Shown: positions 3,022 to 29,968 of the stretch, piece after piece
How the letters are laid out: the number at the start of each line of letters is the position of its first letter
How positions within the stretch are numbered: the stretch's first letter is position 1
Source of the DNA: Trichodesmium erythraeum IMS101
GTDB taxonomy: Bacteria > Cyanobacteriota > Cyanobacteriia > Cyanobacteriales > Microcoleaceae
Direction of reading: 5' to 3'
Assembly: GCF_000014265.1 (NCBI RefSeq)
Contig: NC_008312.1
Span: forward strand, 3,750,001-3,782,000
Length of the DNA stretch: 32,000 nucleotides
The notes under the pieces: generated by a model
Database searches by the model: none
Told to the model about the DNA's origin: nothing
Seen by the model: only the letters and a program-made list of their open reading frames with translations
Position numbers and translations under genes: made by a program

Positions 3022-3128
3022 AAGTGCTATAAAAATTTATACTTTAGTGGCCTATATAATAAATACAATTTATTATACTTTGTCAATTCTTGATTAATTT
3101 TTTATCTAAAATTAAGACTATCGTAAGT

Positions 3129-8355: not shown

Positions 8356-8441
8356 GAGGTATTATATTATTTCGGAAGTATTATAGTATAGCAGTTGAGT
8401 TAAACTAAGCCAGGTAAGTTACCCTACCCGACTCGTCTTCA

Positions 8442-8475
8442 GAACCGGACGTGAGGCTTTCACCTCATCCGGCTC
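8442..8475 (-). ncRNA. Group II intron domain V (catalytic hairpin)
   Basis: The minus strand reads GAGCCGGAUGAGGUGAAAGCCUCACGUCCGGUUC. This is 34 nt with the AGC triad, a 2-nt bulge position and a GAAA tetraloop, matching the domain V consensus. Confidence 0.85.
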
Positions 8476-8496
8476 CTCTCTTAAACGTCCTTTTTT

Positions 8497-11093: not shown

Positions 11094-11813
11094 CTAAGAT
11101 TTGACATCAGTTTTAAAGCGATCAGCATTAGCACTTTCCGCAGTCGCGACATCCCCCTTACCAAAAAATGCAGGAAATGGTTTAGGGATTTCAAGTGCCC
11201 GTTGAGTTCTAGGTCTGTTGTCAATACATTCAAACCAAGCTTGAAGATTTTCTAGTCCATCTACTGATACTTTAGCCCAGTAGTAGGAGCGTGCCCAAGG
11301 ATAAGTAGCTATATCTGCAATGCTAAACTCATCTCCAAGCAAGTAGGTTTTACCTTCAAGTTGCTTATCTAAAACTTCGAGTAGTCTACGTGACTCTTGG
11401 ACATATCGCTTGATTGAAAATTCTTCATGATGTCCTTGAGGTTCAGCAATCCTTTGGAAGTACATAGCCTGACCCATCATTGGGCCAACACCACCCATCT
11501 GAAACATTAACCACTGAAGTGCTTGGGAGCGGGATTTTTCTTCTTTGGGAAGGAATTTTCCGTACTTTTCCGCTAGATACCAAAGAATTGCACCAGACTC
11601 GAAGACGACAAAATTATCATTGCTAAGATCTACGATAGTTGGGATGCGTCCATTGGGGTTAAGCTTCATATACCACTCAGATTTCTGATCCTTTTTGCTA
11701 AAGTCGATGGGTGTTAGGTTGTATTCGACTTCTGCTTCTTCAAGAAAAATTAAAGGCTTCCAACCATTCATGGTGGATGCTGTGTAAAGATGAATATCAG
11801 GTTGTGTTGACAT
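11094..11813 (-). CDS. Glutathione S-transferase, Nu-class (YfcG/YghU-like)
   Basis: 239 aa. The thioredoxin-like N-terminus reads NGWKPLIFLEEAEVEY, NPNGRIPTIVD and FESGAILWYLAEKYG, followed by a helical C-terminal domain. It resembles E. coli YfcG-type GSTs. Confidence 0.85.
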   Translation of the reverse strand: MSTQPDIHLYTASTMNGWKPLIFLEEAEVEYNLTPIDFSKKDQKSEWYMKLNPNGRIPTIVDLSNDNFVVFESGAILWYLAEKYGKFLPKEEKSRSQALQWLMFQMGGVGPMMGQAMYFQRIAEPQGHHEEFSIKRYVQESRRLLEVLDKQLEGKTYLLGDEFSIADIATYPWARSYYWAKVSVDGLENLQAWFECIDNRPRTQRALEIPKPFPAFFGKGDVATAESANADRFKTDVKS

Positions 11814-12115
11814 TATATCTCCTTTAAGCTTATTGATTATATTAACAAAAATAGAAACCTAGTATCCCTTTCTAAAAATTTATACAATCCTAGAAAGATT
11901 TTCTATCGGTGAGAGAAAGCTATTTTTGACTTAACCTTTCATCGCGCTACTGGCAAAAAAGAAGGTAAATTTTTCGTTCAATTGTCTTGGGTGAGAATTT
12001 CCTCTGGATTTTTCATAAATAGTGAAAAGTTTATGCTAGATTTCTCTGGTTAAAGCATTCTTCTCAAGTTTTAATTTGAAATCTTCCACGGCTGTTAGGA
12101 GCGAATATCATTACC

Positions 12116-12252
12116 GTTCCCTAGACCTAATGTGGGTTTACTTTTTATAGGTTGCTGTACCCACCTCTTTTTCTCCCTTCCCACCGAGGGTATCGGGGTG
12201 GGTTACGCTTGCCTGGTATATCAGTTTTTTGTTTTGGGCTGCCCGACCCGCT
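12116..12252. repeat. Copy A of a dispersed GC-rich intergenic repeat (GTACCCACC...TATCGGGGTGGGTTAC, plus inverted GCCCAAAAC)
   Basis: It shares colinear blocks with 20920-20990: gttccctaga/cgtccctaca, tgtacccacc in both, and ggtatcggggtgggtt/ggtcggggaaaggtt. It also shares an inverted block with 20865-20885 (tatcggggtgggtt). gtacccacc (12157-12165) can pair with ggtgggttac (12197-12206). Confidence 0.4.
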
Positions 12253-12502
12253 ACTAAACTAATTAATAGTTAGAATAACACATAAATTCAAAATAAACTA
12301 AACAGTCACCTTAGAAGGACGAAGCTTTAGACCCAATTTTTTTTTAAAAGCCCAATCTAACAACCTAGACATTTTGTAGATACTTTTTAAGATTACTTGA
12401 AATTTTAGACTTTTAATGCTTTCCTTAAGGTTCTATATCAATTTTTTAGCTAGTATTTTCTGACAACAAGAATCTCAAAAAGCGATATCAGTATTTCAGT
12501 AT

Positions 12503-13639
12503 TAGACCTCTCCAACATAAAAATTAAGGTAAAATTGTAATGGCTAATTATATATACCCTGTTTCCAAATGAATAATGTATTAGAATATATTTATAACTA
12601 TCCAAAAGAAACAAAAAGAATTATTGGTATTACAGATGAACAGCTAATGAAATTAATAGAAAACCCTCAAAAAGTTGAAAAAAAAAGACAGGTTAGTGCC
12701 AGCCAATAAAAAAGGTTAATCAAGGCAGGAGGAGGAAGAAAAAAGTCTTTAAGCAAGACAGAAGAGATAATGTTGACTTTATATTATTTGCATCATGTAC
12801 CAACATTTGAGTGACTAGGAGCAATATTTGGAGTTAGCTCATCAACAGCAAATAATATTTTTCAGGCTTTGGATAGATATTTTGAGAGAATTATTACTAT
12901 CTAGTTTACTAGAGGAATTCTCGGGAAAAGAAAACGAATATTTATAGATAAAAGAGGCTTTGACAGAAATATAATTTATAGTTGATAGTACAGAACAGGA
13001 TAGGAAAATGCTAAAACATGATGATAAAGAGAAAAAGTATTATTTAGGAAAGCCAAAAAGTTATAGGTTTAAAAATAAAATATTAATCACAGAAAAGGCA
13101 GAAAAAATAGTAGATTTAATAGGAGGATAAAGAGGTCAAGAAAGTGATACAAAGTTATTCAAAAAAAACACAAAAAAGTTGGATATAGAAAAAATATTTA
13201 AAGGATATAAGGGGTATAAAAGTGGTCAAAGATTAACATATCAAATAAAAAAAAAGAAGCCATAAAATATCAGAATAAGTAAAGAAATAGAATAAAAAAA
13301 AACTTAGAAAAGAATAAATATTTGTAGAACAGATAATAAGACTGATAAAAATATTTAAAATGGCACGAGAAAGATTGAGATTGAAAGAGAGTAATTATGA
13401 AAAAGTAATTTTAATAATATGTGCTTTATTAACATTAAAAAGAGGGAAATTAATATTATTTTAATTCATAAATTTTGCCATAAAAAAAGTAATAAAAAAC
13501 TAGATAAAAATGGTAAATAACTAACAGTAACTATCTGTAATACTATAAAGCCCGTAAAAAATGACTATCTGGTGGAGCTGGCGATCGCTCCCCAAAAGAT
13601 AGTTACAGTAAGGGAAGTGATAATTTTTGGAGATGTCTA
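12503..13639 (+). mobile_element. Decayed IS element (IS5-family, DDE_Tnp_4/HTH_Tnp_4-like transposase) with recognisable terminal inverted repeats
   Basis: The left end is tagacctctccaacataaaaatta (from 12503). The reverse complement of the right end is tagacatctccaaaaatta (ending at 13639). Reading from the ATG at 12569 gives MNNVLEYIYNYPKETKRIIGITDEQL...GGGRKKSLSKTEEIMLTLYYLHHVPTFE*LGAIFGVSSSTANNIF, then ...YYLGKPKSYRFKNKILIT..., interrupted by many stops and frameshifts. No ORF of 60 aa or more survives. Confidence 0.55.
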
Positions 13640-14908
13640 TTATTTATCTGTCAAAAACTCAAGTTTTGATTTTTCTCTGCTACTACTATAGCAGTTATAT
13701 AATTAGATTGAGAAATAAACTGGTGTAAATACTAACGATAAGCTTTTTTAATATCTTGATTAACACTCAAAAACTCTACAATGCACTCAGGACTTTGTAC
13801 TGTCAAGTAGTTTAAGTTCATGTTTTTTAAGTATAACTATGAGTTTTAGCTAAGTACAGGACAAAAAATTTAAACAATTAATAAATTCATTTTGTTTGAA
13901 ATTGATGTCAAGAACGATCGCTTGTAAATGATCCAGCCTATAGGGAAAAATACTTTTTGCCCTAGGATCGTGTTTTTTGATTTCTAAGGGTATTTGTTCA
14001 TATAACCATTCTCCAATTAAACTTCCCCAACTATAAATCCAAACTCATTAATAGCAGTAGTTTACTCAGTCTTTCGAGTTGATTAAAATGAGTTGGTTCC
14101 AAATTGAATTCTCTGGTGTTACATCCTGAACAGTGTTTCATTCCTCTATTAATGAGGATAAAATGTGAGCGCTATGAAAGCTGAATCATTGCTAGTCACA
14201 ATTAGTAATTCTCCATCATCTAACTGTAAAGCTGAAACATACACTTGTCTGCCCCAAACCTATTGTTTTTCTGAAAGAGTTTGAGATTCTCTTTTACCCA
14301 TCACAAATATTATGATCTGCTTTTGACTTTAGTCAAAAAGGAGTTTCAGGTTCAATCATTAATTAAGTTAACTACTCTTTATTGATAAACTCTCTATCAC
14401 TAGAAAGATAGAATACTTGAGCATTGGGAAAAATGTCCGAGAATTTATCTGAAAAATCTATTTTTTTACAAGTGTTGGAGTTCCCTTTATTTTTAAGATC
14501 GTCTAAGTTACAGGGAAAGCAACACCGTTATGGATAATTCCTAAAACGAAAATATTAAAACAATTACAGCCAAAAGACTATTGTGTTCTATCAATACTAA
14601 AAGTCTAAGGTTGAGGTATGTTTATTAATGAGACAATAGTTTTGGCTCCCACTGTAAAATCTAAGTCAAATTTAAAGTCAAATTTAGGAAAAAAATGTTG
14701 TGGTCTTTTGTGGCTATATTCTGGTTTAACGGATGTGGGAAAAGCCAGAGATTAATCAAGTTTACTGTACGAAGACGGATGAGTGCAATTAAAAATAAAG
14801 CTAAAAAATTAAGTCGAGCACTATGGCAAGGTAAATGTTTTTCTCAAGTGTGAGGAAGTAAGTTAATCTGATCCAGAGGAGGGTTGTTCTGAATATTGTG
14901 GTTAATTT

Positions 14909-15172
14909 CTATTCCGCTGCGCGATCGCAAATTACTTGTTTCAGCTGTTCTAAAGAATCAAAAACTTTATTCATAATTGATTCGTCTAGTAAGATCCATA
15001 GCCTCTCTGCAGGCTATAGTTTAGGAGAATAAGTAGGTAATAACTTTAAAAACAAACCCGGCGGAATTTCTAACTTATCTGTGATCCGCTATCAAGCTCT
15101 ATTGAGTACCAGTAACCCTTGATTATTCTGATTAATTCCCTGGGCTTGGGCAAAAGCTTCAAGAATCAGAAT
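14909..15172 (-). pseudogene. IS630-family transposase, C-terminal fragment with three in-frame stops
   Basis: The minus-strand translation is ILILEAFAQAQG...LLVLNRA**RITDKLEIPPGLFLKLLPTYSPKL*PAERLWILLDESIMNKVFDSLEQLKQVICDRAAE*. This matches the conserved IS630 block LVLDRAGWH...LP.YSPELQPAERLW. The N-terminal part is absent; the IS701-like element starts ~50 nt upstream. Confidence 0.6.
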
Positions 15173-15225: not shown

Positions 15226-16270
15226 GACAACTATTTTACGTTAATTACTGCCCGGGAAAAGTTCGATGAAAGAAACAAATCCAGTGACCATACTATCTTG
15301 TTTCCATCGATGGTGCGATCGCTCAACTGGGTTAAGAGACTATATAGGAGGATTACTCTTGAGAAAGTCAAAGAAAAAACTTGTCTCAAATGTCGAATAA
15401 TACTATAGATATATCATACCACAAGTTACGGCATTTCTTAGTTGGAGCCAACTGGTCAATTGGTGCTGTCAATGAGCGTCGTCTTCAAGTTATGTGGCAA
15501 TGTCGTCAAACTAAACCCTCTTGTTCATTTGTTGTGATTATAGATGACTCGGGACATAGAAAAAGTGGTAATTTAACTGCAGGAGTGGGGCAACAATACA
15601 TAGGAGAAACTGGAAAAACAGATAATGATATAGTTGTCGTTATAACTCATCTTGATGATGGAGTAAAAAGTCTACCTTTAGATATAGCTTTATATCAAAA
15701 AGCAAATTCTTTACCTATAGGAAAAAAAGACCGAGAATAAGTTTAAGAAACCAGATGAGCGCAATATCTCTAGTTGACAAATGTTTGTCAGCCCGGATAT
15801 CAACCAGAAATTGTGTTAATTGATAGGGGATATGGTAATAATACATTATTCTTAAATCAACTAGAGAAAAGAAATTTAACTTATATAGGAGGATTAGCTA
15901 AAAATCGAAAAGTCCAAATCCCAAAACAGGATGATATTAAAGAGGAAATTAAATTAGAAAAACTAGCTGAGAGTATATCCCCAAAGGCTTTTAACTTAGT
16001 TAAACTAAGTACAAAAAAAATGCGGGGTGTGGGTAGCCATATTAAAAGTAGAACTATCTAGGATGTCAGATCGAAAAACTATAGCTATCGTTATGAATAC
16101 TAAAAATGTTTCTGAGGCCACTGATATTAACTATTATATTACTAATATTGATAGTAAATATGTAACTCCCCAGTGGATATTGTCTACTTATACTAAGAGA
16201 AATTAGGTGTAGGTTTTCTATAGAGAAGCCAAGGAATGGCTAGGGCTGAGAGAATATAAAATCAGTTTAA
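15226..16270 (+). pseudogene. IS701-family (DDE) transposase, fragmented
   Basis: ORFs 15381..15740 and 15774..16061 are consecutive pieces of an IS701-type transposase. The first reads ...VVIIDDSGHRKSGNLTAGVGQQYIGETGKTDNDIVVVITHLDDGVKSLPLDIALYQKANSLPIGKKD and the second ...GYQPEIVLIDRGYGNNTLFLNQLEKRNLTYIGGLAKNRKV. Further pieces (QWILSTYTKRN*V*VFYREAKEWLGLREYK) run to ~16266, with stops and frameshifts between them. Confidence 0.65.
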
Positions 16271-17606: not shown

Positions 17607-17796
17607 ATAACCACCATACCTAGTGAGGTATTTCATGTTCGGAGCACCTGCGCCTGGAAACTAACTATAGATGGTGTGTGATTTGATATGCTTGGGTAAC
17701 TTCTATTATAAATATTCCCTAAAATCAACTTTAGAAAAGACTTGTTCAAAAAATGTTGTACAGGAATTTATTCTATACAAAAATATACTTTTACAG

Positions 17797-19512
17797 ATGC
17801 CAAGATTAAATTCTCCAAGTATTTTTCCTCACTTTGACATTATAGTGGTAGGTTCAGGTGCTGCCGGACTTTATGCGGCTCTTTGTTTACCTGTTCATCT
17901 CCGAGTCGCCTTGGTTACTAAAAATACTATAAACATGGGTTCAAGTAACTATGCTCAGGGAGGTATTGCTGCTGCCATTGATCCTGCGGATAACCCCATC
18001 TTGCATCTAGAAGATACTCTCAAAGCAGGTGTAGGTTTATGTGACCAGGAAGCAGTAAGGTTTATGGTGGACAATGCGGCCAGAGCGATCGCTCATTTAG
18101 TAGAAATGGGAGTTGCCTTCGACCGCAAAGGAAAAAAACTGGCAATGACTCTCGAAGCTGCTCACTCTCATCCCCGGGTGCTTCATTCAGCAGATACCAC
18201 AGGTAGAGCTATTATTGATACACTCGTTATTGAAGCTCAAGAACGTCCAAATATTCAGATAATTTCCCAGGCAGTAGCATTAAATTTGTGGTTAGCCACA
18301 CAAAAGGCTCGGGTTCAAGGTATTAGTCTTCTTCACGAAGGTAAAATCCAGTGGTTAAAATCCTCTGTAGTGGTTTTAGCAACAGGTGGAGGCGGTCAAA
18401 TATTTGCCCAAACTACTAATCCTGAGGTGAGTACGGGGGATGGAATTGCTATAGCGTGGCGTGCCGGGGCAGTTTTGCGAGATTTGGAATTTTTCCAATT
18501 TCATCCTACTGCCTTAATTAAACCAGGAGCACCTCGTTTTCTCATTAGTGAAGCTGTTCGTGGAGAAGGAGCGCACCTAATAGACAATAAGGGAAACCGC
18601 TTTGCCTTTGAGTATCATCCGGCTGGAGAGTTAGCTCCTAGAGATGTTGTCAGTAGAGCTATTTTCCATCATTTGCACAAAACTGCTACCAAGCCTACCA
18701 ATGCTCATGTTTATTTGGACTTGCGAGCCATTGACTCAGACCGCGTTCGCGACAGATTTCCCAATATTATCAATGTCTGTCAAAAATGGGGTATTGATGT
18801 TTTTCAAGAACCTATTCCGGTTGCTCCTGCTGCTCATTATTGGATGGGTGGAGTGGCTTGCGATCTAATGAGTCAGACTTCAATTCCCGGACTATATGCA
18901 ATTGGGGAAACAGCAAGTACAGGAGTTCACGGAGCAAATCGTTTAGCTAGCAATTCTTTGTTAGAATGTTTAGTATTTGCTTCTCAACTATCTCAGATTG
19001 AAATTGAGCCAAATTTGGTGGCACCTGATGCTGATATTTTTCAGGTAAGTTCTAATTGGAATATGGAAATGGAACAGATAGAGGCTATCCGACAAATGTT
19101 ACCAAGTTTAATGTGGGAAAGTGCAGGAATTTCTCGTAAAGGAGAGTCATTAAGTCAGGCACTATATCAGGTGGCGCGCTGGCGAGATAGTTTAGCAAGT
19201 TTTGAGATAGTTAAGTTTTTAGCTAATCTCTTGCCTAACCAGACGATAAAATTAAATTCGACTAATGCTGAAGAGCAGTTGCGGATAACAGCAGAAACAC
19301 TCAATATTTTAGACTTGGGTTATTTAATTCTTAAAAGTGCTGCATGGCGAACTGAAAGCAGAGGTGGGCATTATCGCAGTGATTATCCAAAAACTTCTAA
19401 TGATTGGAAACTACATACTTTGGTTCAGGGCGATCGCTTATTAACTGGTTTTCCAAATGCCTCGCCCCCTGGCCAAGAGAGAGGGTCTTCAGTCAACATT
19501 GAAAAATTTTGA
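17797..19512 (+). CDS. nadB: L-aspartate oxidase
   Basis: The ORF is 17671..19512. I place the start at the ATG at 17797 (MPRLNSPSIFPHFDIIVVGSGAAGLYAAL), just before the FAD GxGxxG fold. Other motifs are HSHPRVLH, SEAVRGEGA, GLYAIGETASTGVHGANRLASNSLLE and ESRGGHYRSDYP. The product is 571 aa. Confidence 0.93.
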   Translation: MPRLNSPSIFPHFDIIVVGSGAAGLYAALCLPVHLRVALVTKNTINMGSSNYAQGGIAAAIDPADNPILHLEDTLKAGVGLCDQEAVRFMVDNAARAIAHLVEMGVAFDRKGKKLAMTLEAAHSHPRVLHSADTTGRAIIDTLVIEAQERPNIQIISQAVALNLWLATQKARVQGISLLHEGKIQWLKSSVVVLATGGGGQIFAQTTNPEVSTGDGIAIAWRAGAVLRDLEFFQFHPTALIKPGAPRFLISEAVRGEGAHLIDNKGNRFAFEYHPAGELAPRDVVSRAIFHHLHKTATKPTNAHVYLDLRAIDSDRVRDRFPNIINVCQKWGIDVFQEPIPVAPAAHYWMGGVACDLMSQTSIPGLYAIGETASTGVHGANRLASNSLLECLVFASQLSQIEIEPNLVAPDADIFQVSSNWNMEMEQIEAIRQMLPSLMWESAGISRKGESLSQALYQVARWRDSLASFEIVKFLANLLPNQTIKLNSTNAEEQLRITAETLNILDLGYLILKSAAWRTESRGGHYRSDYPKTSNDWKLHTLVQGDRLLTGFPNASPPGQERGSSVNIEKF

Positions 19513-19513
19513 A

Positions 19514-19556
19514 TACAGGACTTACGCTGGTGCACTACACCAGCGTAAGTCCTGTA
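19514..19556. repeat. Perfect 19-bp-stem palindrome built from two inverted CAGGACTTACGC motifs, 2 nt after the nadB stop
   Basis: tacaggacttacgctggtg (19514-19532), a cacta loop, then caccagcgtaagtcctgta (19538-19556). It lies between the convergent nadB and nadA and could act as a terminator or RNA-stability hairpin, although no U-tract follows. Confidence 0.75.
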
Positions 19557-19756: not shown

Positions 19757-20728
19757 TTATGTGAATGAAAGTTCCAACATCTTTTGAATAGGTTTTAATG
19801 CTGCTACTCGTGTTTCTTCAGGAATCATAATTTCTGGCGTCTTATTTTTCATTGCTAAATAAAGCTTTTCTAAATTATTCAGCCTCATGTGGGGGCATTC
19901 GTTACAAGCACAATTATTCATTGCGGGTGCGGGAATAAAGTTTTTCTTGGGTTCTCTCTTTTGCATTTGGTGAATAATTCCCGGTTCAGTTGCCACAATA
20001 AATTCTTGCTCTTGGCTTTCTTGGCAATATTTTAATAAAGCAGTGGTCGAACCAATATAATTGGCATGACGCAATAAATTTGGTTCACATTCTGGATGAG
20101 CAATAATCTCAGCTTCAGGATGTTCTATTTTTAATTGCACAATCTTTTTCTCAGAGAATGTCTCGTGAACAATACAACTGCCTGACCACAAAATCAAATC
20201 TCGTCCAGTTTGTTCCATGACATAGCGACCGAGGTTCTTATCTGGGGCAAAAATTATCGGTTGGTCTGTTGGTATTTGTTTAACTATTTTGACAGAGTTG
20301 GAACTGGTGCAAATAATATCACTCATTGCCTTAATAGCAGCAGTACAATTAATATAAGAAACTACTATGGCATCAGGATGAGCCGCCTTAAATTTGCCAA
20401 ATTCTTCTGGTGGACAACTATCGGCGAGGGAGCAACCTGCATCTAGATCTGGTAGCAGTACCAGTTTATTTGGGTTAAGAATTTTCGCAGTTTCTGCCAT
20501 AAAATGAACTCCCGCAAAAACTATTACATCTGCATCAGTTTCAGCAGCTTTTTGAGAAAGGCCAAGAGAGTCACCAATATAGTCGGCAATATCTTGAATA
20601 TCTGGTTCTTGGTAATAGTGAGCTAGAATAACAGCATTTAATTCTTTCTTTAGGTCGGCGATCGCTTCAAACAAATCATCTGGTATGCTATTAAAATTTT
20701 GGTTGATTCGAGTTTGAGTTGCAAACAT
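19757..20728 (-). CDS. nadA: Quinolinate synthase
   Basis: 323 aa with the motifs [46 protein letters not shown] and TEPGIIHQM, plus a C-terminal CACNECPHM cluster typical of NadA. Confidence 0.95.
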
Positions 20729-21485: not shown

Positions 21486-22319
21486 ATGACAGAAGCAGTA
21501 ACAATTGCTCAAAAATATTATGATAGTACAGAAACCGACAAATTGTATGCTGCCATCTGGGGTGGGGAACATATTCATTATGGAATATACACTAGACCAG
21601 ATGAACCTATCCACGATGCTTCCCTGAGTACAGTAAAAACTATCGCCCAAACTCTGAAAAAAATAGACCAAAATTCCCGAGTCATTGACCTCGGAGCAGG
21701 ATATGGAGGGGCAGCTAGGTATTTAGCTAAAACCTACGGCTGTTCTGTATGTTGTCTCAACTTAAGCCAATTGCAAAATCAACGCAATGGCCAACTCAAC
21801 CAAGAACAAAACTTAGATCCTTTGGTGGAAATAACTCAAGGAAGCTTTGAGGATATTCCCTACCCAAATAACTCTTTTGATATTGTTTGGTCTCAAGATG
21901 CTATTTTGCATAGTGGCGATCGCTGTCTAGTTTTTCAAGAAATCAAGAGAATTTTAAAACCAGGGGGCGAATTTATTTTTACTGACCCCATGGAGAGTGA
22001 AACTTTTCCCCCAGGAGCATTGCAAACTGCTTTTGACCGTTTGGGGATAAGTGACATGGGATCTTACCGCTTTTACAGTCAAACATTAAAAGATTTAGGT
22101 TTTGAGGAATTAAATTTTATTGACCTTTCGCAAAATGTAGCGATCCATTATCGGCGTTTTAGGGAAGAAGTACAGAAAAGGTACAATGAAGTAGTAAAAC
22201 TGACATCAACGGAATTTGTAGATAAAACTTTAGATAGCATTCAACCTTGGATCGAACGTTACGAACAGGGATATATGCAATGGGCGATTTTACACTTCCG
22301 TTTGCTGGAGAAAAATTAA
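21486..22319 (+). CDS. SAM-dependent N-methyltransferase, sarcosine/dimethylglycine N-methyltransferase (SDMT/DMT)-like
   Basis: 277 aa. The N-terminal YYDSTETDKLYAAIWGGEHIHYGIY block, SAM motif I VIDLGAGYGGAARYLA, the WSQDAILHSGDR block and the post-I/II motif ILKPGGEFIFTDPM closely resemble betaine-forming methyltransferases of halophilic cyanobacteria, as I recall them. The substrate cannot be read from the sequence. Confidence 0.8.
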   Translation: MTEAVTIAQKYYDSTETDKLYAAIWGGEHIHYGIYTRPDEPIHDASLSTVKTIAQTLKKIDQNSRVIDLGAGYGGAARYLAKTYGCSVCCLNLSQLQNQRNGQLNQEQNLDPLVEITQGSFEDIPYPNNSFDIVWSQDAILHSGDRCLVFQEIKRILKPGGEFIFTDPMESETFPPGALQTAFDRLGISDMGSYRFYSQTLKDLGFEELNFIDLSQNVAIHYRRFREEVQKRYNEVVKLTSTEFVDKTLDSIQPWIERYEQGYMQWAILHFRLLEKN

Positions 22320-22421
22320 GGACAAAAAAATAAACTTCAGTACTTCAAACTTTTGGCTGAAGCTCAAGTTTATATTAACGAAGTTCCTCCGAAGGAGGCT
22401 AACTGATAACTGATAACCAAA

Positions 22422-22862
22422 ATGACTATTTACTTTTTTGATGAAACAGAACAGCCTTATGGTTGTTTCTCCAACTTTTCCCCCCACGGTTTTGAACTAG
22501 ATGGACTTTGGTGGCCAACTTCAGAGCATTATTTCCAAGCCCAAAAATTTTTGGGGGTTCAGCATCTTGAAGAAATTAGATGGGCTAAAACTCCTGCAGG
22601 TGCTGCTAAAATGGGACGAGAGCGTAGTCGTCCCCTCCGCAAAGACTGGGAGGAAATAAAAGAGGATGTGATGGAGCGAGGTTTACTTTGTAAATTTCAA
22701 AGCCATAAAGATATTGGCGAAATTCTTCTGAGTACCAAGGATGAGTTAATAGTAGAAAACGCTCCTGAAGATTATTATTGGGGATGTGGTAAAGATGGGA
22801 GTGGTAAAAATCGTTTGGGAGAGATTTTAATGAAAGTGCGCAATAGGTTACAGAATAATTAA
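22422..22862 (+). CDS. NADAR-domain protein (YbiA/DUF1768 family N-glycosidase-like)
   Basis: 146 aa. The blocks YGCFSNFSPHGFELDGLWWPTSEHYFQAQKF, AAKMGRERSRPLRKDWEEIKEDVM and DYYWGCGKDGSGKNRLGEILMKVR align block for block with E. coli YbiA as I remember it. Confidence 0.85.
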   Translation: MTIYFFDETEQPYGCFSNFSPHGFELDGLWWPTSEHYFQAQKFLGVQHLEEIRWAKTPAGAAKMGRERSRPLRKDWEEIKEDVMERGLLCKFQSHKDIGEILLSTKDELIVENAPEDYYWGCGKDGSGKNRLGEILMKVRNRLQNN

Positions 22863-23151
22863 TAATTATAGGAACCCATGAGGATGGTAAGGTACAGTTG
22901 AAAATTAATCTTTATCTTTGTAAGAAAAGTATCCCACTTGTTGCCGGCTCGAAAGCTGTGTTGCCAAAATTACTAAATGAATTTTTGTACCTTACGCCCC
23001 TCCGAAATTGCTGTAATAATTCAGGTTAAAAGCCTCCCTTTTTAAGGGGAAAAAATATTTTTTTTTCCTTTTTAGTAAATCTTTTCCCTAAAAGTGAGAG
23101 GTAATTATTAATCGTTAATTACTGAAGGAATTTGTAGAATAAGCAAAAACA

Positions 23152-24237
23152 ATGACTCATTTAATGAATGCGGTTATTCTTACTGGATTTGGTGGACCAG
23201 AAAAACTGGTCTATACTCAAGTTCCTAAACCAACTCCAAAACCAGGAGAAGTCTTGATTAAAGTGGGAGCTTGTTCGGTAAATAATACAGATATTAATAC
23301 TCGCACTGGCTGGTATGCTGCAGAGGATAATTTTCAAGCTATCCTCCAAGATAACACAGAAAATGACCCCAATCATTCTGCTTGCTGGACACAACATGGT
23401 ACCCAGTTTCCTCGAATACAAGGTGCTGATATCGTTGGGAAAGTAATAGAAATTGGGGAAAATGTAGATTCTAAATTTATCCAACAAAGGGTTATAGTTG
23501 ATAGTTGGATTCGTAGTGAAAGTCCTAATAATTATCAATATATTGGCAGTGAATTAGATGGAGGTTTTGCTGAATATACAGTAGTTCCTATTACTAATGT
23601 TTATCCAATTAATTCTTCACTTTCTGATATTGAATTAGCTACATTTCCCTGTTCTTATTCGACAGCAGAAAATATGCTTACTAAAGGAAAAATTACAGCG
23701 GAAGATACTGTGGTAATTATAGGGGCTTCTGGTGGTGTTGGTAGTGCTTTAATTCAATTAAGTAAAATTAGGGGAGCAAAAGTTATTGCTATTGTTGGAG
23801 CTAATAAAGAAGCTTTTGCTAAAGATTTAGATGCAGATTATGTTTATCGACGAGATAATTTATTAGAGTCTAATTTAGCTCAACATAAAATTACTGTTGC
23901 TTTAGATGTCGTCGGAGGAGATTATTTTAATTTGATGATTAAATCTCTTGAGCCAAGAGGAAGATACGTTTCCTGTGGAGCGATTCGAAATCCAATGGTT
24001 TCTCTAGATTTACGAGATTTGATTTACAAAGATTTAGAGATGATTGGAGCAACACGCCTAGAATCAGATGTGTTTCAAAGGTTAGTTAGATACCTAGAAG
24101 CAGATTTATTAAAACCTCTGGTTGCTCAAGTTTTTCAGTTATCTAAAATAAAAGAGGCTCAACAATTTTTTCAAAGTAAAGGTTTCTTTGGAAAAGTTGT
24201 ACTTAATATTGAAGAACAAAATATTACAAAAAATTGA
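23152..24237 (+). CDS. MDR-superfamily NAD(P)H-dependent oxidoreductase (quinone-oxidoreductase/Zn-ADH-like)
   Basis: 361 aa. The GroES-like N-terminus reads GGPEKLVYTQVPKPTPKPGEVLIKVGACSVNNTDINTRTGWY, and the Rossmann motif reads VVIIGASGGVGSALIQLSK. It has a ~35-aa insert before FPRIQGADIVGKV. Confidence 0.8.
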   Translation: MTHLMNAVILTGFGGPEKLVYTQVPKPTPKPGEVLIKVGACSVNNTDINTRTGWYAAEDNFQAILQDNTENDPNHSACWTQHGTQFPRIQGADIVGKVIEIGENVDSKFIQQRVIVDSWIRSESPNNYQYIGSELDGGFAEYTVVPITNVYPINSSLSDIELATFPCSYSTAENMLTKGKITAEDTVVIIGASGGVGSALIQLSKIRGAKVIAIVGANKEAFAKDLDADYVYRRDNLLESNLAQHKITVALDVVGGDYFNLMIKSLEPRGRYVSCGAIRNPMVSLDLRDLIYKDLEMIGATRLESDVFQRLVRYLEADLLKPLVAQVFQLSKIKEAQQFFQSKGFFGKVVLNIEEQNITKN

Positions 24238-24248
24238 GAATATTAAGA

Positions 24249-25649
24249 ATGAATATTGTCTTAAAACTTGTTGATTGTACTCGGTCAAAACATAATTTGA
24301 CCTTGCTTTACCAATACAACGAAATAACTTTTACAACTACTCTTTGGTATTCAACAGTTGACTTTCATCAGCTAGAATCAGAATATACTCAAGAATACAT
24401 GGAGAAAATTTATTTCCATATTTTGTTATTTCATGGATTAAAGATATTAAGTTTAAAACCGACTCACCTTGACTTAGGAAAATATAGTAAATATTGGACA
24501 AGTAATCTACAAAATATTTGGGATTTAAGCGTCGAAGAATGTTTAGGACAGTGGCGTTATGAAACAAATAATTTAGATTATCAAGGAACTAAAATTATTC
24601 ATCAGGATATTACTCTTATAAAAAATTCAGCAGTAACTATTATTCCTGGAAAAATCCCCTTACTTGTTGGCAATGGTGGTGGCAAAGATAGCCTGTTAAT
24701 GGCTATAATTTTAGACGATAATCATATTCCTTTTGATAGTTTTAGCATCAATTTACATACTCATGCTAATCAAAACAAGTTGTTTGAAATGCATGAACAG
24801 CATCTTTATCAACTTAAAAATCCACCGGAAAAAGTTCACCGTCAGTACATTATTGAGTCATTCCTAAATTCTCCAGCAGCTCAACTTCATCGCGTAGAAA
24901 ATTTAGAAATTTCTGATATTAGAAATTATGAAGATTTACCCTTAGCTTATGGAATGTTTGGAATTTTGCCTATTATTCTGCAAGAGAAATATACGCAATT
25001 ATGTTATGGCAATGAAAAAAGTGCTGATAGGGAACAGGTGACAGTAGGGAATCAAAATATTAATCATGCTTGGTGTAAAAGTACCGAGTGTAAAGAAGTT
25101 TATGAAAAGTATATTCAAGAAGAATTTATTAGTAATTTAGTAGTCTTTAGTTTACTAAAACCATGTTCTGATATATTAGTATATCGAATTTTGGCTCACA
25201 AAGTTAAAAAAGGCGATTTAAAATTAGTTTACTCTTGTAATACTAAGCCGCCTTGGTGTAAATCCTGTCCTAAATGTGCTTATGTTTATTTATCCTATAT
25301 GGCTTATCTAACTCCAGAACAGGCAAATGAAATTGAACAAGTTTTAAACAAAGAAAATCTTTTTGATAAACCTGAACTACAGCTTTATTATCGACAACTA
25401 ATGGGGCTAAAAGCTCATAATGCTTTTGAATGTGTGGGTGAAATTGAAGAGACAAAAGTTGCTTTAGAAAAATGTCTGGAAAAAGGATTTACTGGGAAAG
25501 CAATTAATTGCTACACTCAAGAAGCGCGTTTAGATAAAGATGAATATCACAAGCTTTGGAAAGAATATCAACAATTAGATTTATCTTATCAGCGTATGCC
25601 ACCAAAATTAATGGAAATTATGATAGATGAATGTCAAAATTTAAATTAA
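24249..25649 (+). CDS. Protein of unknown function with a QueC-like PP-loop motif and Cys4 cluster (putative ATP pyrophosphatase-type enzyme)
   Basis: The ORF track starts at TTG 24234, overlapping the stop of the upstream gene. The first ATG is at 24249 (MNIVLKLVD), giving 466 aa. The motif LLVGNGGGKDSLL (24675-24692 encodes GGGKDS) resembles the SGGxDS PP-loop. The sequence CNTKPPWCKSCPKC (25236-25277) forms a C-x6-C-x2-C-x2-C cluster about 185 aa downstream. I could not recognise a named family for the ~140-aa N-terminal or ~120-aa C-terminal regions. Confidence 0.6.
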   Translation: MNIVLKLVDCTRSKHNLTLLYQYNEITFTTTLWYSTVDFHQLESEYTQEYMEKIYFHILLFHGLKILSLKPTHLDLGKYSKYWTSNLQNIWDLSVEECLGQWRYETNNLDYQGTKIIHQDITLIKNSAVTIIPGKIPLLVGNGGGKDSLLMAIILDDNHIPFDSFSINLHTHANQNKLFEMHEQHLYQLKNPPEKVHRQYIIESFLNSPAAQLHRVENLEISDIRNYEDLPLAYGMFGILPIILQEKYTQLCYGNEKSADREQVTVGNQNINHAWCKSTECKEVYEKYIQEEFISNLVVFSLLKPCSDILVYRILAHKVKKGDLKLVYSCNTKPPWCKSCPKCAYVYLSYMAYLTPEQANEIEQVLNKENLFDKPELQLYYRQLMGLKAHNAFECVGEIEETKVALEKCLEKGFTGKAINCYTQEARLDKDEYHKLWKEYQQLDLSYQRMPPKLMEIMIDECQNLN

Positions 25650-25802
25650 TAGGATTTACAAAAACTAACCAAAAAAAACAGGTTTATTCCTCTGATATTG
25701 CTATTAAAACCAGGAGATTTACTTCATCAACCCAGTTTCTGCATAAGTTCTGATTAATTTGTATTTTTTGATTTTGAACAACTAAAAAAATAGGAGTTTT
25801 CC

Positions 25803-26918
25803 ATGAAGAGTACAGCAACTTTAAATAAGACTTTTCTTACAGTCAAAGGCAAACGTTTTCACTATGTTTGGTTGCGGGATAATTGCTTATCTCCAAAATC
25901 TCGTCATCCAACTTCTTTTCAGAAACTATATGAAATGAAGCATACTTTATGCCCTGAACCATTATCTGTAGAAGAGAAAGATGGGGAACTGACTATCATT
26001 TGGAACGAAGATCCTCCTCACAAAAGTACATTCTCAATATCTTGGTTGTTGAGTCACGCTTACGATGACGGAGAGCAGGATAATGAAAATGAAGACTCTG
26101 AATCTAATTCTCAGAACCAGGAATTTTTATGGGATAAAGCTTGGATAGAAGCAAATATATCAAAGTTGCAGGAAGCTCTTTCATCCAATCCCGAATTGTG
26201 GCTCGAGCAGCTTTTTACTTTCGGATTCACCGTACTCCATAATATACCAGCCAAGGATTTGCAGGCTACAATAGAATCCATTGGGCCAATTTACAACGGT
26301 GACTACGGATTGTTCGCACCATCAAAGACTACAAATGAAGGAAAGGATTTAGCAGAGACTGGTAATGCGATGAGCTTCCATACTGACTATACTTATTGGC
26401 ACACTCCACCTTTGCTCACCAGCTTGTATTGTGTAGAAAATAGTGCTTCTGGTGGGGAGTCGCTGATCGTAGACGGTTTTCGAGTTGTGGATGATTTTCG
26501 TCAGCAACATCCGGATTATTTTCAGATTTTGACTCAAACTCCCATCCAGTTCAAACAGGTGTACACAAAATGGCAATACTTTTATTCCAGAACTCAGCCT
26601 ATATTAGAATTAGATGAATATGGAAAAGTGACTAGAATCAATTTTGCCAACTCTCACAGCTACACTTGGAAATTACCATTCGATCAAATGGAGGAATTTT
26701 ATGCAGCTTACATAACCTTCTTTCAATATGTAAAAAATCCAGTTTATGAATACTGCTTTAGTCTAGAACCGGGAGACCTTCTGTTGATGAATGACTCCAG
26801 GATTATGCATGGACGGAAAGCTTTTACAGGTAATCGACATCTGGAAATAGCCTGTGTTTCTTGGGATTTTTTGCAGGCACGGCAGCGCTTTCATCAAAAT
26901 AAACATCTTTTTATGTAG
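25803..26918 (+). CDS. Fe(II)/2-oxoglutarate dioxygenase, gamma-butyrobetaine hydroxylase/TauD-family-like
   Basis: 371 aa. The N-terminal DUF971-like block is FHYVWLRDNC. The facial triad reads MSFHTDYTY (HxD) and RIMHGRKAF (distal His plus Arg). A good RBS (taggag) lies 8 nt upstream of the ATG. Confidence 0.82.
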   Translation: MKSTATLNKTFLTVKGKRFHYVWLRDNCLSPKSRHPTSFQKLYEMKHTLCPEPLSVEEKDGELTIIWNEDPPHKSTFSISWLLSHAYDDGEQDNENEDSESNSQNQEFLWDKAWIEANISKLQEALSSNPELWLEQLFTFGFTVLHNIPAKDLQATIESIGPIYNGDYGLFAPSKTTNEGKDLAETGNAMSFHTDYTYWHTPPLLTSLYCVENSASGGESLIVDGFRVVDDFRQQHPDYFQILTQTPIQFKQVYTKWQYFYSRTQPILELDEYGKVTRINFANSHSYTWKLPFDQMEEFYAAYITFFQYVKNPVYEYCFSLEPGDLLLMNDSRIMHGRKAFTGNRHLEIACVSWDFLQARQRFHQNKHLFM

Positions 26919-27195
26919 ACTTTCAAAGTTATATAGCAACCCTAATCTCTCCTCCTAGAATGGGTTAGGGTTCTATACCAAGTTTATGGCTAAGGACGCT
27001 ATGATTTAATAGTTATAGTCATTGCAAAAAGAGATGGAAAACTTTTTCTGCTGAAACGCGAGTTATAGCAAGAAATACTTGTCTTAATCTAAATTAAAAT
27101 AACTATAAGTACTAACAAAAAATTAGTCCTTCCCGATTCAAAACTGATGAGATTTGAACAGAAAATCTCTTGAAAAAATAAGGATTAAAATAAAT

Positions 27196-27939
27196 ATGAC
27201 TACAACTCTAGCTACTCCTGATACTAGTTTAGCAACCATTCAAGCTGCTTTACCTATTGATCCACAGCCCTATATTATAGCCGATCGCCCTACCGGACTC
27301 ATAGTCGTAGATGTACTTAATGGTTTTTGCACTGTTGGTTTTGGACCATTAGCCCCCCAAGAGCCAAACGAACAAATCGCTACAATGGTCTCGGAAAGCG
27401 ATCGCCTAGCTCGTACTTTTGTAGAAAAAGGTTGGCCTGTATTAGCCTTTTTAGATACCCATGAACCAGGAAAACCCGAGCCTCCTTATCCACCACATTG
27501 TGAAAAGGGTACGGGAGAAGAAGAACTCGTTCCCGAACTTCAATGGTTACACGATAACCCCCTGGCAACATTGGTTTTTAAGGATTGTATTAATGGATTT
27601 ATAGGTTCTATTGACATAGATACCCAAGGTAATGTATTGTTGGATTGGATAAATAAGAATAAGCTTGAGGCCCTTGTTGTAGTTGGAATTTGTACTGATA
27701 TCTGTGTCATGGACTTTGTTGTTACTATTCTGTCAGTACGCAATCATGGTTTAGCGCCTACCTTAAAAGATGTGGCTGTATACGATCAAGGTTGTGCTAC
27801 TTTTGATATGACAGCACAAATGGCAGCCGAGAAAGGCTTACCCAAAACTGCTATTCATCCACAGAAAATATCTCATCATGTAGGGTTATATACAATGGCC
27901 GAACGTGGTGCATTTATTGCTTCTACTATTAAGCTTTAG
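27196..27939 (+). CDS. pncA: Isochorismatase-family cysteine hydrolase, nicotinamidase/pyrazinamidase (PncA)-like
   Basis: The ORF track starts at TTG 27154, but the ATG at 27196 (MTTTLATPD) is preceded by aagga. The motifs are VVDVLNGFC (catalytic Asp), FLDTHEPG...PPYPPHC (the D-x-H...H metal site of nicotinamidases; compare M. tuberculosis PncA KDFHIDPG...WPPHC), FKD (Lys) and VVVGICTDICV (nucleophile Cys). Confidence 0.72.
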   Translation: MTTTLATPDTSLATIQAALPIDPQPYIIADRPTGLIVVDVLNGFCTVGFGPLAPQEPNEQIATMVSESDRLARTFVEKGWPVLAFLDTHEPGKPEPPYPPHCEKGTGEEELVPELQWLHDNPLATLVFKDCINGFIGSIDIDTQGNVLLDWINKNKLEALVVVGICTDICVMDFVVTILSVRNHGLAPTLKDVAVYDQGCATFDMTAQMAAEKGLPKTAIHPQKISHHVGLYTMAERGAFIASTIKL

Positions 27940-28205
27940 AAGCTGATTCACTTAACTAGCTATTAGCTTTTAGCAGTCCTAGTTGAAATCACTAGTTTCT
28001 ATAAACCGAAAGGTTTAAGAGAGTTTTAAATACCCTTCTAAATGTTTATCGCCGAGGGCTTATTGTTAGAAATGAAGGTAGAATTTGGCGTTTGAAATAA
28101 AATTTTAAAATTTTAGACCTAGATGTTGAATCCTACTTTTATTAAATGAAAATAATATAATTCTTTTTGAAGATACCAACATAAAAAATAGAGGCAAAAA
28201 ATTTG

Positions 28206-29021
28206 ATGAATACTCAATTAGCAATTGTCACCGGTGCAGGAGGCGCTGTTGGATCTTGCTACCTCAAACACTTTTTAAAACAAGAAAATACAAAATGTGT
28301 GGCTCTTTCCCGAAGCCATTTAGAAACAACCGATGTTATACAATTTAAAGTCGATCTGTTAGATGAAAAAAGAACTAGGGAAGCGATCAAACAATTAGAC
28401 CTTAGTGAGGTTAATGATTTAATATTGGTGCATGGTGTAGGTAAATTTAAATACGAAGACCTCAAGTCTCTACCACACCTAAACCAGGAGCGGCACAAAA
28501 TAGATGATGAAGTATTCTCATCGAACTATCATACTTTTGTTAACGTAGTCAACCCTTTAGTAGAAAAACTTAATGAAGAACATCAGCGAGGGAGAAAAAC
28601 AACCCTCGCTCTTTGTGGTTTTGGTTCCATTAGTGATAAATACAAAATCCCATTTTGGCATTCTTATACTTATGCTAAGGATACTTTACGCCAATATATC
28701 AAAGACTTAGCTAAGTCAGAAGAGTGGCAAGGATTAATTAGGGGACGTTTTATTAATGTTAGTACCACAGATACAGGTAATGAAAATAAGTTGCGTCCTA
28801 ATGTCACCCATGAAGAAAAACAATATTGGTTAAAACCAGAAAAAATTGTTTTTCAATCTATGGCAGTCATTGAAAGTTTACAACCTCTATGGCAAGAAAT
28901 AGATGTTTTTGAAATATTGCCAGGATTTAATCCAGAAGAATATTACAATGATTATCAGACCATCAAAGAAAAATGGCAGCGTCAGATGGCGCTAACTAAA
29001 GTTGATGAGTGCTTGATCTAA
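28206..29021 (+). CDS. Short-chain dehydrogenase/reductase (atypical SDR)
   Basis: The ATG at 28206 is the second codon of the tracked ORF. The motifs are AIVTGAGGAVGSCY (TGxxGxxG dinucleotide motif) and SYTYAKDTL (YxxxK). The rest of the sequence is divergent. Confidence 0.62.
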   Translation: MNTQLAIVTGAGGAVGSCYLKHFLKQENTKCVALSRSHLETTDVIQFKVDLLDEKRTREAIKQLDLSEVNDLILVHGVGKFKYEDLKSLPHLNQERHKIDDEVFSSNYHTFVNVVNPLVEKLNEEHQRGRKTTLALCGFGSISDKYKIPFWHSYTYAKDTLRQYIKDLAKSEEWQGLIRGRFINVSTTDTGNENKLRPNVTHEEKQYWLKPEKIVFQSMAVIESLQPLWQEIDVFEILPGFNPEEYYNDYQTIKEKWQRQMALTKVDECLI

Positions 29022-29140: not shown

Positions 29141-29968
29141 ATGGAGAATGCTGCCAAGGCGATCGCTCATCTAGTAGAAATGGGAGTTGCCTTCGACCGC
29201 AAAGGAAAAAAACTGGCAATGACTCTCGAAGCTGCTCACTCTCATCCCCGGGTACTTCATTCAGCAGATACCACAGGTAGAGCTATTATTGATACACTCG
29301 TTATTGAAGCTCAAGAACGTCCAAATATTTAGATAATTTCCCAGGCAGTAGCATTAAATTTGTGGTTAGCCACACAAAAGGCTCGGGTTCAAGGTATTAG
29401 TCTTCTTCACGAAAGTAAAATCCAATGTTTAAAATCCTCTGTAGTAGTTTTGGCAACAGGTGGAGGCGGTCAAATATTTGCCCAAACTACTAATCCTGAG
29501 GTGAGTACGGGGAATGGAATTGCTATAGCGTGGCGTGCCGGGGCAGTTTTGCGAGATTTGGAATTTTTCCAATTTCATCCTACTGCCTTAATTAAACCAG
29601 GAGCACCTCGTTTTCTCATTAGTGAAGCTGTTCGTGGAGAAGGAGCGCACCTAATAGACAATAAGGGAAACCGCTTTGCCTTTGAGTATCATCCGGCTGG
29701 AGAGTTAGCTCCTAGAGATGTTGTCAGTAGAGCTATTTTCCATCATTTGCACAAAACTGCTACCAAGCCTACCAATGCTCATGTTTATTTGGACTTGCGA
29801 GCCATTGACTCAGACCGCGTTCGCGACAGATTTCCCAATATTATCAATGTCTGTCAAAAATGGGGTATTGATGTTTTTCAAGAACCTATTCCGGTTGCTC
29901 CTGCTGCTCATTATTGGATGGGTGGAGTGGCTTGCGATCTAATGAGTCAGACTTCAATTCCCGGACTA
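29141..29968 (+). pseudogene. nadB: Internal fragment of nadB (residues ~90-366), duplicated, with a premature stop
   Basis: It aligns base for base with 18064-18894. A 3-nt indel and several changes sit at the 5' edge, and I counted 9 substitutions between 29171 and 29513, including CAG to TAG at 29330-29332. The last ~455 bp are identical. The fragment lacks the N-terminal FAD-binding fold and the C-terminal third. Tracked ORFs 29129..29332 and 29360..29986 are its two pieces. Confidence 0.92.

Follow-up and report, generated by a model that had tools for sequence, protein, structure and literature searches.

A stretch of 32,000 nucleotides of the genome of Trichodesmium erythraeum IMS101 (assembly GCF_000014265.1, contig NC_008312.1, positions 3,750,001 to 3,782,000), referred to here as the window and used for all coordinates below, carries seven plus-strand genes at positions 21486-29021. 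Judged from gene order and spacing, these are very probably the IMS101 copy of one operon that filamentous cyanobacteria from the sea have in common. Its overall role may be the synthesis of N-methylated zwitterionic small molecules. Our preferred reading has several layers and combines the conserved operon, a methyltransferase that forms homoserine betaine, and a second substrate derived from nicotinic acid mononucleotide (NaMN); to this combination we assign a probability of about 0.4. The seven open reading frames (ORFs) are intact and no other gene lies between them. Their coordinates in the ORF list and their strand exactly reproduce those of a preliminary description made from the sequence alone:

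21486-22319, plus strand: methyltransferase (MT), an S-adenosylmethionine (SAM)-dependent N-methyltransferase resembling sarcosine/dimethylglycine N-methyltransferase (SDMT); NF041675, 323 bits; ABG51659.1
22422-22862, plus strand: NADAR/YbiA-type N-glycosidase; PF08719 and TIGR02464
23152-24237, plus strand: zinc-less medium-chain dehydrogenase/reductase (MDR) of the quinone-oxidoreductase/enoyl-reductase type; ADH_N and ADH_zinc_N; ABG51661.1
24234-25649, plus strand: MurL-family PP-loop ATP pyrophosphatase with a predicted QueC-type fold; PF26298/PF26299; likely ATG at 24249
25803-26918, plus strand: Fe(II)/2-oxoglutarate (2OG) dioxygenase of the gamma-butyrobetaine hydroxylase (GBBH)/TMLH/TmpA family with a remodelled pocket; TauD, 154 bits; ABG51663.1
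27154-27939, plus strand: isochorismatase-family hydrolase with nicotinamidase-type motifs; PF00857, 75 bits; likely ATG at 27196
28203-29021, plus strand: atypical short-chain dehydrogenase/reductase (SDR); adh_short, 27.8 bits

Searches of the window proteins against Pfam and NCBIfam with curated cut-offs upheld the family assignments of the preliminary description, except for the label "orphan" that it had given to the PP-loop/Cys4 protein. This protein belongs to the MurL family instead (PF26298/PF26299, with a partial match to NF041275). The close pairing of the MDR and PP-loop genes was seen correctly, as the ATG chosen by the gene caller (24249) lies 11 nt past the MDR stop codon.

At least ten independent cyanobacterial loci from at least six genera contain these genes with order and orientation preserved; amino-acid identities to the window proteins are 63-91% in tblastn searches. 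Loci for comparison, denoted by L numbers below, were obtained from contigs coding for close homologues of the MurL-like protein, from a scan of species-representative genomes, and by tblastn with the window proteins, and gene-family clustering was run on all of their ORFs. Carriers are Okeania (two metagenome-assembled genomes, MAGs), a Microcoleaceae MAG, "Cyanobacteria bacterium J06592_8", Symploca (two MAGs), Caldora, Moorena (three genomes), and further uncultured cyanobacteria. The exact arrangement was also seen on many contigs of marine metagenomes, Tara Oceans assemblies among them. This synteny speaks for one conserved unit, which the preliminary description had weighed against a set of unrelated neighbours. 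In its compact form the cluster has the order nadA-MT-NADAR-MDR-MurL-like gene-dioxygenase (GBBH-like and/or PhyH)-nicotinamidase-like hydrolase-SDR-nadB, often with nadC adjacent, and a PhyH-family oxygenase is located alongside or instead of the GBBH-like one in several loci.

Spacing outside Trichodesmium is that of an operon. In J06592_8 (JBCBCI010000027.1) the spacers measure 8 nt (nadA to MT), -4 nt (MT to NADAR), 14 nt (NADAR to MDR), 11 nt (MDR to MurL-like gene), 66 nt (hydrolase to SDR), and 59 nt (SDR to nadB). In Symploca SIO2E9 (JAAHGS010000133.1) they measure 64 nt (nadA to nadB), -4 nt (nadB to MT), 7 nt (MT to NADAR), and 6 nt (NADAR to MDR). Across L012 and L016 the spacers lie between -4 and 66 nt, with a gap of 8 nt between nadA and MT in L012. 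Overlaps of 4 nt occur between nadB and MT and between MT and NADAR in compact versions, and in Okeania and L012 the NADAR gene overlaps the MT stop by 1-4 nt. The wide spacers of the window (102-289 nt), which had cast doubt on a single operon, therefore represent a peculiarity of Trichodesmium.

The link to nadB and nadA, genes of the de novo synthesis of nicotinamide adenine dinucleotide (NAD), is real and stronger than had been noted. Wherever a locus has enough flanking sequence, at least one of nadA, nadB, and nadC borders the cassette, in varying arrangements; among the compared loci nadA was counted 6 times, nadB 7 times, and nadC 6 times. The nadC gene adjoins the cluster in Okeania, Moorena, and one MAG, and that of Moorena is bona fide (TIGR00078, 328 bits). 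A gene for the betaine-binding protein ProX adjoins one cluster variant, which fits a zwitterionic product.

In Moorena the cluster is split, with nadA-nadB-MT-NADAR located 24 kb upstream of hydrolase-SDR-nadC-MDR-MurL-oxygenase-PhyH-hydrolase and a polyketide synthase (PKS) and other genes in between. An apparent absence of MT and NADAR from Moorena, as a co-varying "ribosyl-to-methyl swap" pair, was rejected, because the contig does carry both genes beside nadA-nadB, 24 kb upstream of the remainder. A gene for a two-domain methyltransferase of 562 amino acids adjoins the cluster in Moorena (L030, 11953-17168) and Symploca (L005, 14650-16338); in Moorena it is followed by genes for a soluble flavoprotein resembling flavocytochrome c/fumarate reductase and for a protein corresponding to the C-terminal B12-binding/activation half of MetH. 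Uma2, XisH/XisI, DUF4058, and IS605 OrfB/TnpB genes as well as group II introns have been inserted repeatedly within the cluster (L001, L006, L010, L012, L014, and others), among them a Uma2 gene after a truncated oxygenase gene in J06592_8. The cluster gene order is kept despite these frequent insertions.

Comparison of the Trichodesmium genes with those of Okeania (L008) gave ratios of nonsynonymous to synonymous substitution rates (Ka/Ks) of 0.10-0.21 for all seven genes, indicating purifying selection. Ks itself was 0.22-0.23 for the MurL-like and oxygenase genes and 0.60-0.79 for the MT, hydrolase, SDR, and nadB genes. The low values in the centre (24234-26918) suggest a possibly more recent exchange of this part than of the flanking genes. 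A consensus scan for promoters and terminators found no more sites than in shuffled sequence. Rfam models, searched over the whole window, detected no riboswitch or other RNA within the cluster, the sole matches being group II intron domains at 8399-8478. PADLOC matched no anti-phage defence system and reported only generic MT and NADAR domains.

The MT is a class I SAM-dependent enzyme (Methyltransf_11, 76.6 bits; DLGAGYGG, of the DxGxGxG type, at residue 68) that is annotated as "Methyltransferase type 11" in ABG51659.1. SDMT-type enzymes methylate secondary and tertiary amines. Like the SDMT of the glycine betaine pathway, which acts together with a glycine/sarcosine N-methyltransferase (GSMT), the protein can be aligned along its full length to the SDMT model (residues 3-272 against 7-276 of 278), and it matches PDB entry 2o57 at 2e-60. 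It differs in that its score against the SDMT equivalog NF041675 (323.1 bits) does not reach the cut-off of 550, in that no partner GSMT is encoded, and in its reported substrate. Tery_2447 of Trichodesmium has been called a homoserine methyltransferase with a role in homoserine betaine synthesis and is up-regulated at a salinity of 43 parts per thousand (PMC5864184). That paper cites Pade et al. 2016 for this role. Homoserine betaine is the main compatible solute of Trichodesmium, and the published pathway seems to involve the methyltransferase only. The nine-gene context with NAD genes was absent from the literature that we found. The window MT was the only SDMT-like protein of Trichodesmium among the 120 best database matches, and as the organism is the same, it is probably the very gene described as Tery_2447. 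Pade and colleagues reportedly chose their homoserine methyltransferase gene for its similarity to glycine-betaine methyltransferases. The preliminary description had proposed either an amino-acid betaine such as trimethylhomoserine or a pyridine betaine of the trigonelline/homarine type. The former fits the activity reported for Tery_2447, if this is indeed the window gene, whereas the latter fits less well.

For the second presumed betaine enzyme of the preliminary description, the dioxygenase, the case is weaker. Its best NCBIfam matches are TmpA, GBBH, and TMLD, the TmpA structure 6npb is matched at 4e-47, and a GBBH-like N-terminal domain is present. We aligned it to human BBOX1 and TmpA together with its orthologues from Okeania, Symploca, and Caldora. 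It has the fold of the GBBH/TMLH/TmpA enzymes as well as their HxD...H iron triad and 2OG-binding arginine (H193, D195, H336, and R345, aligning with H202, D204, H347, and R360 of BBOX1). In contrast, of the four residues that we take from the literature to form the aromatic cage of BBOX1 (Y177, W181, Y194, and Y366), Y177 alone is kept and three are replaced (W181A, Y194E, Y366C). Both carboxylate-binding asparagines of GBBH are replaced as well (N191D, N292A), and all these replacements are identical in the three orthologues. Hence, the substrate is unlikely to be a trimethylammonium carboxylate: by descent the enzyme belongs to the GBBH family, but it probably does not bind this type of compound. 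The quaternary-amine theme that had been ascribed to both enzymes is thus less well founded for the dioxygenase. Another difference concerns the N-terminal zinc site CxCxxC...H. Residues 23-35 read WLRDNCLSPKSRH, with CLSPKSRH in place of the orthologous CLCPKCRH; the pattern shared by all orthologues is CLCPxC(R/S)H. The protein sequence lacking two of the three zinc cysteines is fixed in many metagenome contigs.

Homologues of the PP-loop protein carry the domains MurL_N and MurL_epimerase_C (PF26298/PF26299) in precomputed annotations, and full-length identity to proteins annotated as MurL is about 30-37%. Common to this family are the PP-loop GGGKDS (residues 148-153) and five cysteines (C335, C342, C345, C348, C400), all of which are invariant in the 51 sequences scored. 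The window protein differs from MurL in three respects. The MurL equivalog NF041275 is matched with 92.8 bits against a cut-off of 700 and only over residues 251-414, no MurD-like gene coding for a MurD2 partner was present in any locus examined, and the protein falls into a distinct subclade (at least 44% identity) that is found in small-molecule clusters. A PDB sequence search gave no match for this protein or for the SDR. The AlphaFold (AF2) model (predicted local distance difference test, pLDDT, 90.9) was matched by Foldseek to QatC (E 1e-5) and QueC (E 4e-4 to 9e-4, target-normalised TM about 0.6), and also to argininosuccinate synthase and TtuA; according to these fold matches the modelled protein is a PP-loop ATP pyrophosphatase of the QueC type. 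MurL, the one characterised member, catalyses the unidirectional epimerisation of a glutamate at the C-terminus and converts ATP to AMP; adenylation of the alpha-carboxylate has been proposed as the mechanism (PMC8788868). By analogy, we predict that the window protein is a carboxylate-adenylating epimerase.

Two further occurrences of the MurL family were observed. A second clade, 48-65% identical to that of the window, is part of another conserved cluster in a Streptomyces and a cyanobacterium (L002, Streptomyces sp. LZ34, 9327-15097; L003, 6349-12352), which codes for a DUF3865 protein, an arginase-family enzyme, one or two methyltransferases, a nitroreductase, and an exporter. A full-length family member of 35% identity (P0031) is annotated on a 16-Mb contig of the nemertean Tubulanus polymorphus and would reflect either contamination or a horizontal transfer to the animal.

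Of the enzymes that suggest nucleotide chemistry, the NADAR protein scores above both curated cut-offs (PF08719, 147.3 bits against 35.1; TIGR02464, the ribosylamine-phosphate N-glycosidase family, 159.3 bits against 73.7). The hydrolase matches PncA of Mycobacterium tuberculosis (3pl1) at 8e-9, with D52, K143, and C184 aligned to D8, K96, and C138, and the metal-binding motifs LDTHE (residue 100) and PPHC (residue 113) are present in the alignment. The earlier PncA-like call is supported by this retention of the Asp-Lys-Cys triad and the DxH...H motifs, although the protein differs from true PncA in remaining far below the cut-off of the equivalog NF008623 (29.8 against 174 bits). With NAD de novo synthesis and salvage the window thus shares bona fide nadA and nadB genes, a NADAR protein of the YbiA type, and nicotinamidase motifs. 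None of the characterised NAD pathways, however, is known to have its genes interleaved with those of the other types present here (MT, 2OG oxygenase, MDR, SDR, and MurL-like protein). As read from its motifs, the MDR is zinc-less, with QGAD replacing GHE at residues 90-93, and carries the quinone-oxidoreductase-type motif NxxDxxxRxGxY at residue 44; its best PDB match, 4j6f, has no assigned function. The SDR contains TGAGGAVG at residue 10 and YTYAK at residue 155. Its adh_short score is marginal (27.8 bits against a cut-off of 26.6), and the pLDDT of its single-sequence AlphaFold model is low (52.9). In the L006 variant an iron-containing alcohol dehydrogenase (Fe-ADH) occupies the SDR position, which points to ordinary alcohol/carbonyl chemistry.

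Clusters that are paralogous to the one described here occur in Dapis (L026), Okeanomitos (L027), and Thiomargarita (L028), where MDR paralogues of 66-70% identity, in Dapis as three tandem copies, are paired with an MR_MLE (enolase-superfamily) racemase, a 2OG oxygenase (a 47% GBBH-like paralogue in Dapis), methyltransferases, and a dehydrogenase resembling pyrroline-5-carboxylate (P5C) reductase. They adjoin an OpuA-type betaine ABC transporter or genes for non-ribosomal peptide synthetases (NRPS or NRPS-PKS), and they may encode routes to cyclic amino-acid betaines. No NADAR, isochorismatase, or nad genes were found in these three clusters. As the MurL-like gene of the nad-linked cluster holds the place of the racemase, the comparison supports an epimerase role, and the co-variation of NADAR, hydrolase, and NAD genes supports a connection to pyridine nucleotides that is specific to this cluster type. 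The set of oxygenase, MDR, epimerase, reductase, and N-methyltransferase seems to be a recurring theme. Enolase-superfamily betaine epimerases are known, and the 4-methylproline cassette consists of a hydroxylase, a zinc-dependent alcohol dehydrogenase, and a P5C reductase. These systems resemble the window cluster in the logic of their components, namely oxygenase, MDR, reductase, epimerase, and N-methyltransferase near betaine transporters. They differ in the protein families, except for the MDR and the GBBH-like paralogue of Dapis, and in lacking NADAR, isochorismatase, and NAD genes. NAD precursors are consumed in the synthesis of altemicidin, which starts from beta-NAD, and of the nickel-pincer cofactor, which is made from nicotinic acid adenine dinucleotide via LarB and LarE, a PP-loop enzyme adenylating the pyridinium carboxylate. 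The likeness to these pathways is one of concept only, as the cluster encodes no homologue of SbzP, LarB, or LarC.

Since NADAR, the nicotinamidase-like hydrolase, and NadA/NadB/NadC are confined to this cluster type, the pyridine ring of NaMN may provide the skeleton of the second substrate. The oxygenase, the zinc-less MDR, the MurL/QueC-type enzyme, and the SDR would form the tailoring set. In the proposed route the N-ribosyl pyridinium of NaMN, activated by its N-ribosylation, would be reduced by MDR and SDR and then hydroxylated, and the MurL-type enzyme would adenylate the carboxylate and epimerise the adjacent carbon. The NADAR N-glycosidase, whose characterised relatives cleave ribosylamine phosphates, would strip off ribose-5-phosphate, and the SDMT-like enzyme would quaternise the freed ring nitrogen to give a betaine of a tetrahydropyridine- or piperidine-carboxylate. 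Ring chemistry of this kind for the second substrate is a tentative proposal that we regard as more doubtful than the layered reading of which it is a part. Its furthest form, in which NaMN is a building block for a tetrahydropyridine-/piperidine-3-carboxylate betaine of the arecaidine or nipecotate type, serving as osmolyte or neuroactive deterrent and constituting a previously unknown class, is unlikely.

Several points weigh against the layered reading. The ring chemistry is an inference only, and both its intermediates and its product are hypothetical. If the MT acts on homoserine, it has no chemical tie to the pyridine ring, and promiscuity of the enzyme would be required; in addition, the correspondence of Tery_2447 to ABG51659.1 is probable rather than certain. 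The MDR paralogues in NAD-free clusters indicate that the substrate of this enzyme need not be a nucleotide. A metal site of the nicotinamidase type, as predicted for the hydrolase, normally binds an unsubstituted pyridine nitrogen, so that its step would be hard to place. The un-numbered Swiss-Prot name of nadA suggests a sole housekeeping copy, in which case the NAD genes would not be dedicated duplicates. Two of the three N-terminal zinc cysteines of the oxygenase were lost in the Trichodesmium lineage only. Finally, all loci stem from related filamentous cyanobacteria, and part of the synteny could thus be inherited rather than selected. Leads to possible occurrences beyond the cyanobacteria are MurL-like relatives of 44-50% identity (P0021 and P0023) and an MT of Parabeggiatoa (62%).

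The strongest rival, less probable than the layered reading but a serious one, assumes two modules that are co-transcribed under shared regulation, e.g. by salt stress, and have no common intermediate. One of them would tailor betaines or amino acids (MT, oxygenase, MDR, MurL-like epimerase, SDR), and the other would serve NAD supply and salvage (NadA, NadB, NadC, the PncA-type nicotinamidase, and NADAR as a nucleotide or ADP-ribose N-glycosidase). The salt induction of the homoserine methyltransferase Tery_2447 (PMC5864184), provided that this is the window MT, the recurrence of the tailoring set without NAD genes in paralogous clusters with highly identical MDRs, the apparently single nadA, and the nicotinamidase motifs of the hydrolase all suit such an arrangement. 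It accounts poorly for the interleaving of the two sets (nadA / MT / NADAR / MDR-MurL-oxygenase / hydrolase / SDR / nadB), for overlaps of 4 nt between genes of both sets, for an association with nad genes that has survived many rearrangements, and for the absence of NADAR and hydrolase from the NAD-free paralogous clusters. A coincidental gathering of unrelated genes is effectively refuted. The gaps of 102-289 nt in the window would suit it, and promoter-like sites no commoner than in shuffled sequence give no positive sign of a single promoter, but order is conserved in at least ten loci of at least six genera with near-zero spacers and overlapping stop and start codons.

Two further explanations are quite improbable. 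The cluster could serve to supply homoserine betaine by a dedicated route that is insensitive to feedback, comparable to ectoine clusters with a dedicated aspartokinase. The PP-loop enzyme would adenylate the beta-carboxylate of aspartate in the manner of asparagine synthetase, SDR and MDR would lead via aspartate semialdehyde to homoserine, and the MT would trimethylate the latter. A carboxylate-adenylating fold, two reductases, and aspartate as the substrate of NadB as well agree with this idea, as does the substrate reported for Tery_2447 (PMC5864184), again if it is the window gene. Oxygenase, NADAR, hydrolase, and nadA/nadC are left unexplained, however; the replacement of the SDR by an Fe-ADH suggests alcohol/carbonyl chemistry rather than reduction of an acyl adenylate, the only characterised member of the MurL family is an epimerase, and a racemase takes the place of the MurL-like gene in the paralogous clusters. 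An aromatic pyridine betaine, trigonelline or homarine, has about the same low likelihood. Here, the MT would N-methylate nicotinate, quinolinate, or picolinate, with NADAR freeing nicotinate from NaMN and the nicotinamidase feeding in more of it. This would make use of the nadA/nadB/nadC linkage, NADAR, and the PncA-like motifs, and both compounds are abundant in the sea while their microbial biosynthetic genes are unnamed in the literature found. On the other hand, two or three genes would suffice, which leaves MDR, MurL-like protein, oxygenase, and SDR, the most conserved core, superfluous; the literature search yielded nothing that ties Trichodesmium to homarine or trigonelline production, and SDMT-type enzymes methylate aliphatic amines, the activity published for Tery_2447 being on homoserine (PMC5864184). 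The catabolic hom operon for homarine is flavin-based and unrelated to the cluster.

The flanks of the cassette have been rearranged in IMS101. Features of this region are:

17671-19512, plus strand: nadB, L-aspartate oxidase, intact; NF005636, 975 bits, and TIGR00551, 624 bits
19514-19556, no strand: near-perfect palindrome of 43 nt with an 18-bp stem, directly after the nadB stop; 93% match to its own reverse complement
19757-20728, minus strand: nadA, quinolinate synthase; NF006878, 476 bits; identical to ABG51658.1 and Swiss-Prot Q112B6
29142-29968, plus strand: nadB pseudogene fragment of 827 nt with 98.4% identity to 18068-18894

In the window nadA is inverted, whereas in other genomes it is co-directional with the MT gene and directly upstream of it. 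The nadB fragment, which had escaped the preliminary description, follows right after the SDR gene, spans residues 133-408 of NadB, and contains an in-frame TAA. In another Trichodesmium population the downstream nadB copy reaches further in the 3' direction and carries the same stop. Since nadB is located 3' of the SDR gene in L008, L010, L012, L014, and L018, i.e. exactly at this place, the fragment can be regarded as the decayed ancestral nadB. Judged from this arrangement, the intact upstream copy is the product of a rearrangement that also inverted nadA.

The TAA of the pseudogene falls on the codon of Gln196. In L023, a metagenome/MAG contig, the upstream nadB (1869-3710) has the same C-to-T stop as its sole difference from the window nadB, which suggests either that the two nadB copies have undergone gene conversion or that the assembly is chimeric at the repeat. 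The palindrome at 19514-19556 is situated between the convergent nadB and nadA genes and is a candidate bidirectional terminator; it is omitted by a simple terminator scan because it has no T-run. Two adjoining ORF fragments of a DDE_5 transposase (15381-16061) represent a decayed insertion sequence close to where the rearranged region has its left edge, with nadB about 1.6 kb downstream. Further upstream, on the minus strand (8399-10330), group II intron domain V/VI (RF00029, RF04357) adjoins a split reverse-transcriptase/maturase ORF (8497-9603 and 9539-10330), and a 340-nt copy of the 3' region of this intron with 73% identity is found at 911-1249.

All protein families of the cluster, and probably the MT itself, were already known, and our literature search found no paper on the whole gene set. 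What appears to be undescribed is their conserved combination, above all a betaine-type operon into which NAD ring synthesis, a MurL-type enzyme, and NADAR are wired. Nitrogen fixation by Trichodesmium is of global importance, and Okeania, Moorena, Symploca, and Caldora are prominent as producers of natural products in the sea. The hard-wiring of NAD ring genes to betaine-type tailoring enzymes in all these genera points to an undescribed small-molecule pathway. The cluster could also provide first functions outside their known settings for an ATP-dependent epimerase of the MurL type, a YbiA-type NADAR protein, and a GBBH-family oxygenase without the aromatic cage. If the MT is the homoserine-betaine enzyme, osmolyte synthesis in Trichodesmium would be embedded in a larger unit, which may alter views of its regulation, its nitrogen cost, and the methylated amines that are exuded. 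The interest would be considerably greater if NaMN proves to be a building block; NADAR and the MurL family would then also gain their first roles in small-molecule biosynthesis.

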